A DNA stretch of 64,000 nucleotides, from IMG/VR virus record IMGVR_UViG_3300042448_001253, positions 1 through 64,000 of that record; one strand, given 5' to 3'. The notes under the pieces are model-generated. The model had not been told where the DNA came from. It saw only the letters and a list, made by a program, of their open reading frames with translations, and searched no databases. Source of the DNA: a virus. This document shows, one piece after another, positions 3,701-7,811 of this stretch. Numbering within the stretch: position 1 is the stretch's first letter; each line of letters begins with the position of its first letter. The position numbers were made by a program, and so were the translations under genes.

Positions 3701-4360
3701 CTACGTATTGTCTATAAGATTCTTCACTGTGGTTGGATACCACTTACCCCCATTTTGACCAAGCACTCCATCAGCATTCAGCCCATCCGCTATCTGACGA
3801 TAGGTGCGGCCACGACTTCGTTCCAAGTATACCCTATTCTTTACATCATCGGGAGTTTTGTTCTTCGGCCCCATATCAACGCCCCACTTCACCCCACGCT
3901 CTCGGCGGTCTTTATGCACGTCTTTCTGACGAGCAGAGATAATCCCACGCTCCATCTCAGCCAATGCACTCATAACAGTAACCACGAATCTCCCCTGATA
4001 AGTAGAAGTGTCTAAGTTTAGGTCCAGCATCACCAAACGCCAGTTTTTCCTGTTTGCCCTATCAACAATGTCCAAGAAGTCTGTTGTGCTACGAGCAAGG
4101 CGGTCAATACGAGTAACGAACAACGCCTGAGCCTCTCCGGTCTCTAACTGCTTAAGGGCGGCTGTGAGAGCGGGTCTACCAGTAATGCTTTTACCAGAAC
4201 GCCCCTCCTCACGAATAATCTCCCAACGGGTGAACCCGTGGAACTCAGCAGCCGTTACTAACTGCCTTTCCTGTACATCTAGCGATACGCCATCGTTTAC
4301 TTGCATTTGCGTAGATACTCTTGTATATAAGAGTGCTAGGCCAGGGTCAGGAGTTTCCAT
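3701..4360 (-). CDS. Serine recombinase (catalytic domain plus short recombinase-type DNA-binding domain)
   Basis: YTRVS catalytic Ser, SGKS, RPAL, RIDRLAR, EMERGIISAR, C-terminal TYRQIADGLN...GGKWYPTTV. Confidence 0.9.
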   Translation of the reverse strand: METPDPGLALLYTRVSTQMQVNDGVSLDVQERQLVTAAEFHGFTRWEIIREEGRSGKSITGRPALTAALKQLETGEAQALFVTRIDRLARSTTDFLDIVDRANRKNWRLVMLDLNLDTSTYQGRFVVTVMSALAEMERGIISARQKDVHKDRRERGVKWGVDMGPKNKTPDDVKNRVYLERSRGRTYRQIADGLNADGVLGQNGGKWYPTTVKNLIDNT

Positions 4361-4903: not shown

Positions 4904-5001
4904 AACATATACAAGCATCTCCCCGATTTGCAACAATGAACACCCGAAACTAGTGCGATAATAGAGGGGGAGATACACACACTTTAAAGGAAAACACCGC
5001 C

Positions 5002-5568
5002 ATGTCCGCTCAAGACCCTACATATAGAGTAGTTGCCGATTTAGTCATCTCTCCGACCGAAACCATAGTTTTAGGCGAAACCGGCTACATGTACTCAGTT
5101 ACAGAGCCTAACAGAATTGCGACCATTGGCGACTTAACATCTGCCGTCGGCGGGGTTGATACAGCTTTCACCGTTGCAGGTGGAACTCTAGGGACTCAGC
5201 CTACTTTTACTGGAGCACCCTTATTTACTGGTTCTTATGTAAGAACAGGCGACCAAGTCCACTTTAGAATTGACGTTGACATGGACAATATCACTAACTT
5301 TGGTAGCGGTCAGTACTACATGGACTTACCATTTCCATCCAAGTACAACTACCAGTTTGCTGCTGGCTGTTTGCACGATATCTCCACTGGTAGAGACTAC
5401 CCAATCTTTGGACACGTTCTAGCAGGACAATCTCAGATGGTGCTGAAGAGTATTGATGCTCAGGGTAACTCTGCCTACAATGTACCGTTTACTGCAACAG
5501 CCCCCGTTACTTTAGATGTAGCAGACAATTTCCACGTCTCTGGCGATTACATTACCGACGCAGAGTAA
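5002..5568 (+). CDS. Isolated plus-strand gene resembling a tail-fibre C-terminal beta domain
   Basis: Own -10 (GATAAT) and AAGGA site; G/T-rich beta-strand sequence (TGSYVRTGDQVHFRIDV...YYMDLPFP). Confidence 0.6.
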   Translation: MSAQDPTYRVVADLVISPTETIVLGETGYMYSVTEPNRIATIGDLTSAVGGVDTAFTVAGGTLGTQPTFTGAPLFTGSYVRTGDQVHFRIDVDMDNITNFGSGQYYMDLPFPSKYNYQFAAGCLHDISTGRDYPIFGHVLAGQSQMVLKSIDAQGNSAYNVPFTATAPVTLDVADNFHVSGDYITDAE

Positions 5569-5574
5569 GTTTGG

Positions 5575-5692
5575 CAGACCTAGTACTGACTTTCCCTAAG
5601 TTTGGACCTTAGTTCCAGAGGTTCCCACTCTTGCGAGTCGTCTCAAGTTTTCACTCTGCTGGTTGGTCGTGTGGACTCAGCAGTAAAGAGCC
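5575..5692 (-). ncRNA. Candidate structured non-coding RNA
   Basis: Minus-strand hairpins CTGCTG/CAGCAG, ACTC-GCAA-GAGT, GAGT-GAAA-ACTT (GNRA loops) and CTAAG/CTTAG; no ORF. Confidence 0.35.
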
Positions 5693-5696
5693 TTTT

Positions 5697-5782
5697 GTGG
5701 ACTGCGAGGAATCGCACCTCGGAAACTCCTTACGGAGCACCTCTCGCTACTTTATTCACAATGGTCAAGTAGCACAGTCCTA
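5697..5782 (-). repeat. 86-bp exact direct repeat, copy 1 (tRNA-like fold on the minus strand)
   Basis: Base-for-base identical to 6082-6167. Confidence 0.95.
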
Positions 5783-5786
5783 AAGT

Positions 5787-6035
5787 TTATTTAGTCTTTC
5801 TCTTAGAGATGGCAATACCTAAATCAAAAAGACCTAGAGTAATAGCAATCGGCAAAAGTGGCAAACTATAAGCAGCAACAAACATCATAACCTTCGCAGC
5901 ATCATTCACTGCTGCGTGAGAGTTGACATTGAAACCTGCTAAAACATAGACTGTGCTAATTGCTACTAGTGGAATTAGTCCTAAAACAATTCCAGTCCTG
6001 CGTATTACTTTTTGTACTTTGTCTTTATTATTCAT
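5787..6035 (-). CDS. Two-TM membrane protein (82 aa) between the repeats
   Basis: MNNKDKVQKVIRR followed by two hydrophobic helices; start trimmed so the gene lies between the repeats. Confidence 0.7.
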   Translation of the reverse strand: MNNKDKVQKVIRRTGIVLGLIPLVAISTVYVLAGFNVNSHAAVNDAAKVMMFVAAYSLPLLPIAITLGLFDLGIAISKRKTK

Positions 6036-6081
6036 TATTTCTTTCTGCCTCTCGGCGTTCTTTGTAGCATTTATGGTACGA

Positions 6082-6167
6082 GTGGACTGCGAGGAATCGC
6101 ACCTCGGAAACTCCTTACGGAGCACCTCTCGCTACTTTATTCACAATGGTCAAGTAGCACAGTCCTA
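6082..6167 (-). repeat. 86-bp exact direct repeat, copy 2 (tRNA-like fold on the minus strand)
   Basis: Identical to 5697-5782. Confidence 0.95.
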
Positions 6168-6295
6168 CGAAGCGTATAGGTGTTGGTACACCCACGCTTC
6201 GAGCCTCTAGGGAATCCCCTAAGCATCAACAGACCGATGAGCTAAAGTCTGGCTACCTCCACGCAAACTGGTACCACCCAGTCGGTGTCGGGCTC
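6168..6295 (-). ncRNA. Candidate structured non-coding RNA directly downstream of tmRNA
   Basis: GAGCC...GGCTC closing stem around hairpins ACTGG/CCAGT, CAGAC/GTCTG and TAGGG/CCCTA, then CGAAGCGT/ACGCTTCG hairpin. Confidence 0.4.
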
Positions 6296-6297
6296 TG

Positions 6298-6637
6298 TGG
6301 AGATGCGGGGAATCGAACCCCGGTCCAGTGGACGTTCAGTTATTCTTCTACAAGCTTAGGCAGTTTAAATATAAATAGTGTTTGACCTGCCAGACCACTA
6401 TATTTTCGCTTTTCCAGGCAAGCGATTTAGCCCTGTTACTAAGTTGTTCTATTTATTTAAAACCTGACTGCCCACCTAGAACTAGTGCTTTGTCAGGGGC
6501 CAAAGCGTTGCGATTAAATCACGCGGCTAGAGCGTATGCAGATGTATTAGCATTTATTGTTTTGACAGATTCAAGAGATACTGTCATCTCTGCTTGCTTC
6601 ACTAACATCAAGACAACTGTCGAAACCAGTCATCCCC
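6298..6637 (-). ncRNA. ssrA: tmRNA; tag peptide ANTSAYALAA (6519-6551)
   Basis: 5' GGGGATGACTGGTTTCGAC; 3' GGTTCGATTCCCCGCATCTCCA; acceptor stem with G3-U70 pair; ATAAAT-GCT resume context and YALAA-stop tag. Confidence 0.95.
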
Positions 6638-6644
6638 TCAATAT

Positions 6645-6776
6645 TTAGTTTTGTTGTACTACTAGCTTACGCTTCTCTTTATCAAAGACTTTAGGACGCT
6701 TTTTAGACGCCTTACCGTTTTGACGAGTAGTCGTAGTCTTTACTGGTGCCGAAGCACCGCCTTTACCTTTTGCCAT
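6645..6776 (-). CDS. Small, very basic protein (43 aa, MAKGKGGASAPVKTTTTRQNGKASKKRPKVF...), not in the ORF track
   Basis: AGGAG ribosome-binding site upstream; Lys/Arg-rich. Confidence 0.65.
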   Translation of the reverse strand: MAKGKGGASAPVKTTTTRQNGKASKKRPKVFDKEKRKLVVQQN

Positions 6777-6787
6777 AATAACTCCTA

Positions 6788-7021
6788 TTATACATCAATT
6801 CCATCATTTGTAGCACGCCACACTGACGGAGAGTGGTTTTCTTGAACTGCCTGCTTTACAGCAGCATCGTCGTAGAGACGAAGGATGTGTATGCAAGGGT
6901 CGCCTATTTCAAACTCATCGTCTTCTGCTGCAGTTGTTGGTAGCCCATCGTGCGTGTAGCAGACAGCTGGACCAGTCCAGCCATTAGCAATACCTAAGGC
7001 AATCCATTCATCGTATGTCAT
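6788..7021 (-). CDS. Conserved small phage protein (CYTHDGLP...PCIH)
   Basis: Start trimmed to MTYDEW, which has AGAGGAG upstream. Confidence 0.65.
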   Translation of the reverse strand: MTYDEWIALGIANGWTGPAVCYTHDGLPTTAAEDDEFEIGDPCIHILRLYDDAAVKQAVQENHSPSVWRATNDGIDV

Positions 7022-7446: not shown

Positions 7447-7474
7447 ATTGTACCTTAAAAAGGCATCTCCTATT
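7447..7474 (-). promoter_or_regulatory. Candidate late promoter AATAG-N17-TACAAT
   Basis: Same architecture as 51049-51076 and 60660-60687. Confidence 0.45.
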
Positions 7475-7811
7475 CAGACTTAGAACTACCCTTAATTTCG
7501 GTTTTAATCAGCCTGTTACGAGCAATGGCTCTTCTCTCACGCTCGGTAGTTCCACCCCAGATTCCGAGTTCATGGTATTTAAGGGCGTACTCCAGGCAAC
7601 GAACCTTGTAAGGACATTCAGCACAGATGGCTTTAGCCTCTTTACCGTAGGTGTACGAGGAGTGAGTAAGCTCGATTACTTTGCCGTTTCTGAGGGCGTC
7701 AGACGTACTTCTTTCTTCTGTAAAGAAAGCGTCTGGATACGTTTCAGAACAGGGAGTGGCACCATGCTCTTCAAAGTCGGGATAATCTTCTGGGATAAGG
7801 CCGTCTAGCAT
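7470..7811 (-). CDS. whiB: WhiB family transcription factor
   Basis: C...PDAFF...AKAICAECPYKVRCLEYAL...GIWGGTTERER. Confidence 0.92.
   Translation of the reverse strand: MLDGLIPEDYPDFEEHGATPCSETYPDAFFTEERSTSDALRNGKVIELTHSSYTYGKEAKAICAECPYKVRCLEYALKYHELGIWGGTTERERRAIARNRLIKTEIKGSSKSE

Follow-up and report, generated by a model that had tools for sequence, protein, structure and literature searches.

The DNA considered here is a stretch of 64,000 nucleotides from a virus (IMG/VR record IMGVR_UViG_3300042448_001253, positions 1 to 64,000), which we will call the window, and its subject is a short tRNA-like RNA unit that occurs there twice on the minus strand, downstream of the transfer-messenger RNA (tmRNA) and on either side of a small gene that we will refer to as gene X. 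A repeat search of the window returned an 86-nt direct repeat at positions 6082 to 6167 (copy 1) and 5697 to 5782 (copy 2), with 100% identity between the copies and a start-to-start spacing of 385, in agreement with a preliminary description of this DNA. Copy 1 is placed 130 nt past the tmRNA and 46 nt ahead of the gene X start, and copy 2 begins 6 nt past the gene X stop codon. Both copies score 114.4 bits with our covariance model (CM); copy 1 is further supported by the stability of its fold and by covariation, and copy 2 by a junction between gene and unit that is the same in two related loci (L006 and L024). No further unit was found in the 64-kb window, either by CM search or by a generic scan for acceptor and T-arm. 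As detailed below, these units belong to a tRNA-like RNA family that is absent from Rfam 15, was previously uncatalogued, and is well supported by covariation.

On the minus strand the unit folds as a four-way junction, as had been proposed, with a closing stem of 6 bp (GGACUG/CAGUCC), a first arm of 7-8 bp carrying a 14-nt loop, a second arm of 5 bp closed by the loop GUAA, and a T-arm whose stem has 4-5 bp and whose loop reads UGCGAUU in the window. Copy 1 is made up of this 84-nt fold and two conserved nucleotides at its 5’ side; the earlier remark was that repeat ends and fold ends coincide to within 2 nt. The minimum free energy of the unit is -33.2 kcal/mol, compared to -21.4 ± 3.4 for shuffled sequences (z = -3.5), and none of 200 shuffles was as good. 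The preliminary description had also pointed to a tRNA architecture, a missing anticodon arm, a closing stem of only 6 bp, and a G in place of U55, all of which are seen in the fold and in the T-loop, UGCRANN. To evaluate the fold by comparison, an alignment (A1) of 15 distinct sequences of the kind found in the window, hereafter type A, was scored against the four helices. Paired cells accounted for 97.7% of the helix cells, against 92.4 ± 0.6 in shuffles (0 of 500 reached the observed value), and eight pairs were altered on both sides, a number reached by one shuffle in 500. In controls where the 3’ partner was slid by 1-3 columns, only 31-48% of the cells were paired. All four helices covary, and a lack of covariation among homologues, which had been named beforehand as grounds for refuting the proposal, was not what we encountered. 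The closing stem shows A-U, G-U and G-C, with its third pair being A-U in 9, G-U in 4 and G-C in 2 of the 15 units; arm 1 shows C-G/A-U and U-A/C-G exchanges, arm 2 U-A/A-U, and the T-stem GAGG/CCUC versus UAAG/CUUA. Because G-U pairs such as those of GGGCUG/CAGUCC (L001, L004) fit only one strand, and the opposite strand would have A-C mismatches, the functional strand is that of the tmRNA and of the flanking open reading frames (ORFs). We conclude that the unit is a genuine structured RNA and that it is read from the same strand as the tmRNA.

Pattern scans of IMG/VR and of metagenomes of the Joint Genome Institute (JGI) allowed us to gather approximately 50 related loci, designated here by L-numbers. 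A search for the common 3’ half yielded 42 units with 33 distinct sequences, which fall into type A (81-84 nt), type B (71-73 nt), type C (65-68 nt), one singleton type each in L034 and L037, and further types in L027, L030, L019 and L047. Judging by these sequences, the units are a family with the same ends and different middles, with at least seven interior types, of which type A is one. The types found by pattern share the stem GGRCUG...CAGYCC, the AC behind it, and UGCRANN as a T-loop of 7 nt; a few further types differ, for example in having GGACUA/UAGUCC as the closing stem, or a canonical UUCRA T-loop. A G at T-loop position 55 is present in every type A, B and C unit, as well as in most of the other types. 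Types B and C and the two singletons of L034 and L037, folded singly, give one cloverleaf with a 6-bp closing stem, two variable arms, and a T-arm of 4-5 bp. We relied on single-sequence folds here as the consensus that RNAalifold derived from a MAFFT alignment of types B and C was poor, owing to the misalignment of arm 1. The arms were also too ragged in a CM-made alignment of all types for one superfamily model to be built. Across all the alignments made, in which five interior types were represented, the closing stem is invariant at five of its six pairs. In A1, the junction AGAGGU and the loops are almost invariant as well, and type A is better conserved than the tmRNA in the same pairs of genomes (93% versus 69%, for example, between the window and L006), with 2-14 nt differences between genomes and none between the window copies. 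Homology of the window to 12 other contigs begins and stops within 0-4 nt of the repeat ends, and this match between homology limits and repeat ends indicates that the unit is a discrete module. Our statements on copy number are based on five whole contigs and on partial loci: the five related genomes measure 95-137 kb, with a completeness of 90% or more in four cases, and by CM search each carries one or two units, at most 0.5 kb from one another and at the position of the tmRNA island. Units were seen only in related phage contigs that encode WhiB.

No Rfam family was found for the unit, either at the gathering threshold on the whole window or at E<=10 on 1.4 kb and on 111 nt, which settles in the negative an earlier question as to whether it might match a known family. 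The best score, 10.6 bits with an E of 1.4, came from the permuted-tmRNA model and involved the T-arm and the 3’ strand only. The tRNA model RF00005 gave no match at E<=10 even in the 111-nt search, and ARAGORN, as anticipated, called only the tmRNA and no tRNA at the unit. We rejected the possibility that the unit is a tRNA based on these results, on arms that are not a D-arm and a 5-bp anticodon stem with a 7-nt loop, on a stem of 6 rather than 7 bp, and on a T-loop that reads UGCRANN and not UUCRANY. A tRNA-like domain of a tmRNA, or one part of a two-piece tmRNA, was likewise rejected due to the weak model score and the lack of a consistent G3-U70 pair. GenBank phages were without a match to window positions 5000-7000 by blastn. 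A metagenome scan with the type A pattern recovered four more type A loci, with three new sequence variants, and the remaining matches to that pattern were discarded as sigma-factor coding or unrelated sequence matching by chance. Among the 80 matches listed for the shared 3’ pattern in bacterial genomes there was no CM match, which argues that these are chance matches and provides no evidence of the unit in bacterial chromosomes.

Between the two copies lie 299 nt that hold one real gene, gene X (5787 to 6035, minus strand), which encodes a protein of 82 amino acids with two hydrophobic stretches at approximately residues 14-36 and 47-77. The earlier claim of exactly one membrane-protein gene between the copies agrees with these data as far as gene number and hydropathy are concerned, and no family name can be attached to the protein: no Pfam or PHROG match was obtained, and its homologues, in 11 clusters, are all unnamed or "hypothetical". 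The true start is the ATG at 6035, and a mechanically called 112-aa ORF with a GTG start, which runs into copy 1, is not the gene. Gene X is intact in three other loci. In L006 and L024 it is followed by a type A unit with the identical junction, as in the window, and in L006 it lies between two different unit types; in L041 it is found among protein genes and without a unit. The 46-nt leader with the ribosome-binding site (RBS), at 6036 to 6081 on the minus strand, is common to L004, where it precedes a different gene. Alignment A3, in fact, has the window tracking L004 up to the RBS and then L024, L006 and L041 from the ATG on, so that the homology on the left of gene X breaks off at the start codon, where microhomology extends over only a few nt, and not at the unit. 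We also observed that L024 (6460-6555, minus strand) carries, upstream of gene X, about 25 nt that resemble the 5’ part of type A (GGACUGUGCUACAUGAC...); unrelated sequence and the motif UUCGGGG...GCCUUGG come next. This motif also occurs ahead of gene X and of the next gene in L041, and it may be a phage promoter or a regulatory box moving with small genes.

Upstream of copy 1 is a complete phage tmRNA, at 6295 to 6637 on the minus strand (6295/6297-6637 by Rfam and ARAGORN), with the tag ANTSAYALAA and a score of 130.5 bits for RF00023, the sole Rfam family at gathering level in the 64 kb; its distance from copy 1 is that given in the preliminary description. The tmRNA CCA is not encoded. 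Its 3’ end reads CUCCAC, to be compared with GUCCAC in the units, and closes with the discriminator A and a C, the same AC that follows every unit. The interval between tmRNA and copy 1 is occupied by a structured spacer, S (6168 to 6294, minus strand), a multi-hairpin element recognized by blastn matches of 6296-6082 to L028 (89%) and of 6638-6036 to L004. Spacer S (6246-6371 in L004, 2927-3057 in L028) and a type A unit travel together in L004 and L028, and in the latter S comes directly after a gene for an Hsp20-like protein, with no tmRNA, so that S and type A may form one composite module. In relatives, the spacers ahead of units resemble, by eye, H-type pseudoknots with covariation (L007 5226-5282, L001 5961-6015, L012 1812-1876). 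In the spacer called S1, a GGAG loop pairs with a 3’ CUCC, with GAGAG/CUCUC in L019, AGAG/CUCU in L001 and L024, and GGAG/CUUC in L017 and L020; in S2, a GCAACUA loop pairs with a 3’ UAGUUGC, replaced by GCAACA/UGUUGC in L015. S1 spacers also hold a self-complementary CCUAGG in a loop.

On its other side, the island is closed by a structured tail, T, of approximately 127 nt (5567 to 5693, minus strand), which is 82-96% identical to at least 13 loci and in which five pairs are changed on both sides according to RNAalifold. Tail T is more conserved than the tmRNA, has no Rfam match, and shows several hairpins, some of them capped by GNRA loops, one with a variable insert (L001, L009). It looks like a second uncatalogued structured RNA. 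Upstream of the tmRNA, a 43-aa ORF at 6645-6776 on the minus strand stops 8 nt short of the tmRNA, and tblastn shows it to be conserved in over 20 related loci; it suggests co-transcription of the tmRNA with the protein genes ahead of it, those of the WhiB operon, and the whole island looks like the tail of that operon’s transcript. A second RNA island was encountered in relatives, where manA RNA (RF01745, 59-65 bits; L004 7477-7654, L019 1645-1822) adjoins a tRNA-Gly behind a promoter-like site, TTGACA-17-TACTAT. No manA match was found in the window.

The window also encodes WhiB (7470-7811), a class II ribonucleotide reductase, an MT-A70 methylase, a PrimPol-D5 helicase, Pol A, a SNF2 helicase, and a siphovirus Dit domain. 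By this gene content the genome is that of an actinobacterial siphophage, with an uncultured host that WhiB places only at the level of phylum, and its relatives are a clade of large, uncultured freshwater actinobacterial siphophages. We tabulated the tmRNA islands of the window and of 20 others. Every one of these islands, that of the window and all 20 others, has a unit behind the tmRNA, mostly 52-136 nt from its end, and tail T closes the island in the window and 13 others. The minimal arrangement is tmRNA-S1-B-T (L019, L020), where letters denote unit types. Between the first unit and T there is a slot whose content varies, with none to two small orphan genes, more units or a tRNA: orf63 in L008, L010, L018 and L022, orf135 in L007, orf218 in L017, orf124 in L003, orf57 and orf124 in L004, A-S1-B-tRNA-Leu in L001, gene X-A-S1-B in L024, and C-gene X-A-S1-B in L006. 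Slot genes without a trailing unit are found in L003, L004, L007 and L010. Most slot genes carry hydrophobic stretches, and none has a Pfam or PHROG family, with the exception of a PHROG labelled ferredoxin for the L017 gene. One of the roles suggested earlier for this locus, that of a gene-shuffling hotspot, fits the swapping of small genes here between related phages. Units with upstream structured spacers are also found between ordinary protein genes (L002, L012, L023, L028, L029, L037), a few nt past a stop codon and approximately 16-46 nt before the next start, and placement at gene boundaries on the same strand is similar in about 40 loci. Modules S2 and S3 with type A or C lie also ahead of a conserved gene starting MDEKIS (L002 449-531, L012 1877-1946, L029 2263-2348), in L002 after a gene ending GMPI*, and this intergenic site is a second hot spot for modules in a sub-clade.

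How did two identical units come to bracket one gene? Modular recombination accompanied by gene conversion would, in our opinion, explain the duplication better than the integration of a 385-bp circle, based on the junction at the start codon, on the leader shared with L004, and on the presence of a recombinase gene beside islands with a single unit. The region between the first unit and tail T would be a hypervariable slot in which modules are swapped by recombination, and a module consisting of gene X and a type A unit, as in L006 and L024, would have landed behind a module of the form tmRNA-S-type A-leader, as in L004 and L028 for its shared parts. The two units could then have become identical via gene conversion, or both parents could have had the same allele. 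In our own reading of A1, copy 2 carries the L028-like allele, as copy 1 does, at four of the five sites where the L024 unit differs, which points to gene conversion or to parents sharing one allele. On the right side, the window passes from type A straight into T, whereas L024 has A-S1-B-T, and this difference suggests that a module was lost at a shared CAGUCCAC.

The preliminary description had instead proposed that a 385-bp circle, composed of one unit and the gene, integrated at the RNA gene or could be excised from it by site-specific recombination, possibly through a nearby serine recombinase. Its attraction is evident, as an exact direct repeat with ends equal to the unit ends brackets a single gene, L024 retains its fragment of type A upstream of gene X, and any 86-bp direct repeat can release a circle by homologous recombination. 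A resolvase-type serine recombinase of 219 amino acids is indeed encoded 1.3 kb from the repeat (3701-4360, minus strand), with a full catalytic domain and the first ~44 residues of a "Recombinase" domain, in what is probably a lytic phage. The position reported for it holds; its tie to the duplication does not, and was rejected, because L009, L014 and L021 have homologues, 72-80% identical over nearly the whole of the window protein, at a distance of about 3-4 kb from the unit (with a partial match at the end of locus L007), all of which are single-unit islands, and none was found in the flanks that we examined of the other gene X islands, L006 and L024. The window protein is, moreover, a short form. 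The left homology break falls at the start codon instead of at a unit, the leader belongs to the resident unit, as it follows type A in L004 ahead of a different gene, and gene X exists with no unit in L041 and between two different unit types in L006. Among the contigs searched, only the window has the same type twice. Overall, we consider the circle very improbable: the idea of a mini-cassette targeted to an RNA gene is not supported, and the sequences compared here offer no specific support for the circle itself.

An ORF joined to a structured element with conserved ends and a variable middle does loosely recall an integron cassette, another point that could be raised for the circle. In integrons, attC is recombined as folded single-stranded DNA by the tyrosine recombinase IntI, and the cassettes, like the locus studied here, pair an ORF with a structured imperfect inverted repeat and form arrays of promoterless small genes in one variable locus. 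The phage locus, however, has no R’/R’’ core, has a start codon as its left boundary, and carries hallmarks of RNA (the T-loop, the G-U pairs, and an orientation fixed by transcription) that point to an element acting at the RNA level. The locus does not show the defining features of an integron cassette: no tyrosine integrase was detected among the neighbouring ORFs scanned, the only recombinase nearby is the 219-aa resolvase-type protein, whose homologues accompany single-unit islands, and the homology on the left of the gene breaks off at the start codon.

It could also be argued that no genome with the A-X-A order exists, and that two co-occurring strains, one with tmRNA-S-A-leader-X and the other with X-A-tail, were joined through the repeat during assembly. 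The relatives are, in fact, metagenome-derived viral contigs, all junctions but that between leader and gene X are also seen separately in other contigs, and exact identity of the copies would be expected if the path through the graph had been collapsed or chimeric. On the other hand, an 86-nt repeat is shorter than ordinary reads and far shorter than read pairs, and is normally resolved; the novel junction of leader and gene X lies between the copies and must exist in some molecule; and the type A remnant upstream of gene X in L024 is a precedent for the A...X-A order. We regard such an artefact as improbable. Equally slight, in our judgment, are the chances of a bolder scheme, in which the closing stem and AC, identical in at least seven interiors, would be a sequence-specific exchange point, making of the locus a cassette system built on tRNA-like RNA genes, whose element would serve both for processing and as the crossover site at which interiors and neighbouring small genes are swapped, and in which the paired arm-1 loops of flanking copies would loop the gene out of the transcript.

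Regarding function, the best explanation at present, in which we place about even confidence, is that type A keeps those parts of a tRNA that are read by processing enzymes, and that the units act as cutting marks for RNase P and RNase Z in the module-swapping slot behind the tmRNA. RNase P, RNase Z and the CCA-adding enzyme need no more of a substrate than a minihelix of acceptor and T-arm, and type A would preserve this minihelix as an acceptor-like closing stem stacked on the T-arm and followed by AC, with arms of its own replacing the D and anticodon arms. The island would give rise to a single long transcript that runs on from the WhiB operon upstream; host RNase P would cut on the 5’ side of each unit, and host RNase Z on the 3’ side, between the A and the C of the conserved AC, in the same way as in the CCA-less tmRNA nearby. 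The latter has no encoded CCA and hence needs, besides RNase P at the 5’ end, an RNase Z-type endonucleolytic cut at the 3’ end and then CCA addition. The predicted products are a tmRNA with S as its trailer, two stable RNAs of about 84 nt, and a monocistronic gene X mRNA with a 46-nt leader and a 6-nt trailer. Two features expected of such elements are present: the acceptor-like stem and the T-arm-like hairpin are conserved as structures, with both helices covarying, and the units sit on the same strand at boundaries of mRNAs and RNA genes in a polycistronic setting, where a simple scan of the minus strand between 7900 and 5400 detected neither promoter-like nor terminator-like sites. The earlier suggestion of a processing signal for the tmRNA transcript thus fits the structure, strand and placement of the unit, with cleavage itself being putative, while the parallel suggestion of a decoy against anticodon nucleases is improbable, since the unit has no part that resembles an anticodon loop.

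Several points, however, weigh against processing as the sole or main role. A 6-bp closing stem leads to an acceptor/T stack of 11 bp, unless an A-A mismatch is counted, and either this short stack or the G in place of U55 could weaken recognition by RNase P or RNase Z. The scan for promoters was of the sigma-70 kind, which covers actinobacterial promoters poorly. One or two units per complete relative do not make a genome-wide punctuation system. Near-invariant loops and the AGAGGU junction would not be needed by a pure cutting mark, and the RNA probably has a further function of its own; neither the five invariant closing-stem pairs nor a conservation above that of the tmRNA is explained by processing alone. 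Taken together, the invariant loops and junction, the high conservation and the fixed closing stem suggest a function for the excised RNA.

This leads to a second possibility, which could rival or complement the first and to which we assign a clearly lower, though appreciable, likelihood, namely that the unit is mainly a small RNA acting in trans, whose tRNA-like ends serve its own maturation and stability, as in a natural "tRNA scaffold", and whose interior binds a partner. It could be, for example, a bait for enzymes or toxins acting on the acceptor ends of tRNAs (the CCA-adding enzyme, MenT/AbiEii-type nucleotidyltransferase toxins of actinobacteria, or EF-Tu), or it could be a homodimer, and the second copy in the window would simply double the dose. 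The conservation just discussed favors this possibility, as do the several interior types built on one frame and the location of the unit among RNA genes (tmRNA, tRNAs, manA RNA) with only one or two per genome. A hexamer in the arm-1 loop (window 6139-6144 and 5754-5759) is also self-complementary, if G-U is allowed, in all five of its variants (UUGUGA, UCGUGA, UCGCGA, CCAUGG and CCGCGG). It could be a kissing or dimerisation site or, in an equally good reading that explains the same covariation, a one-pair mini-hairpin closing a tetraloop. We downgraded the former idea since the commonest hexamer, UUGUGA, pairs only through A-U and G-U and its kissing dimer would be weak; no consistent complementary site in cis was found for the hexamer within ±800 nt. 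Placement before starts and after stops, even within protein operons, would not be required of an RNA acting in trans. Such a role does not exclude processing, and the difference between the two is which of them is primary.

If processing is indeed the primary role, the nearest functional analogues would be the t-elements of plant mitochondria and the arrangement of mascRNA and MALAT1. T-elements are decayed tRNA copies. Forner et al. (2007, PMC1920247) describe non-decoding tRNA-like structures of this kind at the 5’ or 3’ ends of mRNAs in longer transcripts, and regard them as probable cis-acting signals at which RNase P and/or RNase Z cleave endonucleolytically. The phage units are alike in being tRNA-like and in lying at mRNA boundaries inside longer transcripts. 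They differ in having no detectable tRNA origin, well-conserved arms of their own, a 6-bp closing stem, a G at T-loop position 55, and several interior types on one frame with only one or two units per genome, and cleavage is here putative. At the 3’ end of MALAT1, cuts by RNase P and RNase Z give the flanking RNA its mature end and release mascRNA, which is small and stable. This shares with the phage unit a tRNA-like fold inside a longer transcript and no anticodon function; it belongs, however, to a eukaryotic nuclear lncRNA, has another interior, and bears no sequence or family relation to the unit. The Rfam mascRNA-menRNA model matched only the T-arm region of the tmRNA itself, with 21 bits. 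Among phages, the tRNA cluster of T4 contains stable RNAs that are not tRNAs, species 1 and 2 (rnaC/rnaD), co-transcribed and co-processed with the tRNAs. They are, like our units, small structured RNAs, but they are not repeated around protein genes, and no homology is expected. PeSLs, which combine an early promoter with a stem-loop, are repeated, flank small ORFs in hyperplastic regions, and offer homology for modular shuffling; Arbiol et al. are said to have described them in 2010 as mobile regulatory cassettes of T4-type phages. The likeness to our units lies in a short repeated element that flanks small ORFs and provides homology for shuffling, although PeSLs are not tRNA-like RNAs by a tmRNA gene.

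Recognition of the unit adds a tRNA-like RNA family lacking in Rfam 15 and tied to the tmRNA islands of an uncultured clade of freshwater actinobacterial phages. The locus is a clean natural example of modular shuffling, where RNA modules stay in place and small orphan genes, mostly for membrane proteins, turn over, and the slot behind the tmRNA is consequently a good place to seek phage accessory or exclusion genes. The principle of the tRNA mimic operates in plant mitochondria and in MALAT1, and the "tRNA scaffold" is its laboratory application. Provided that RNase P and RNase Z do cut the units, these phages would likewise use tRNA mimicry to punctuate their operons and to frame small RNAs.

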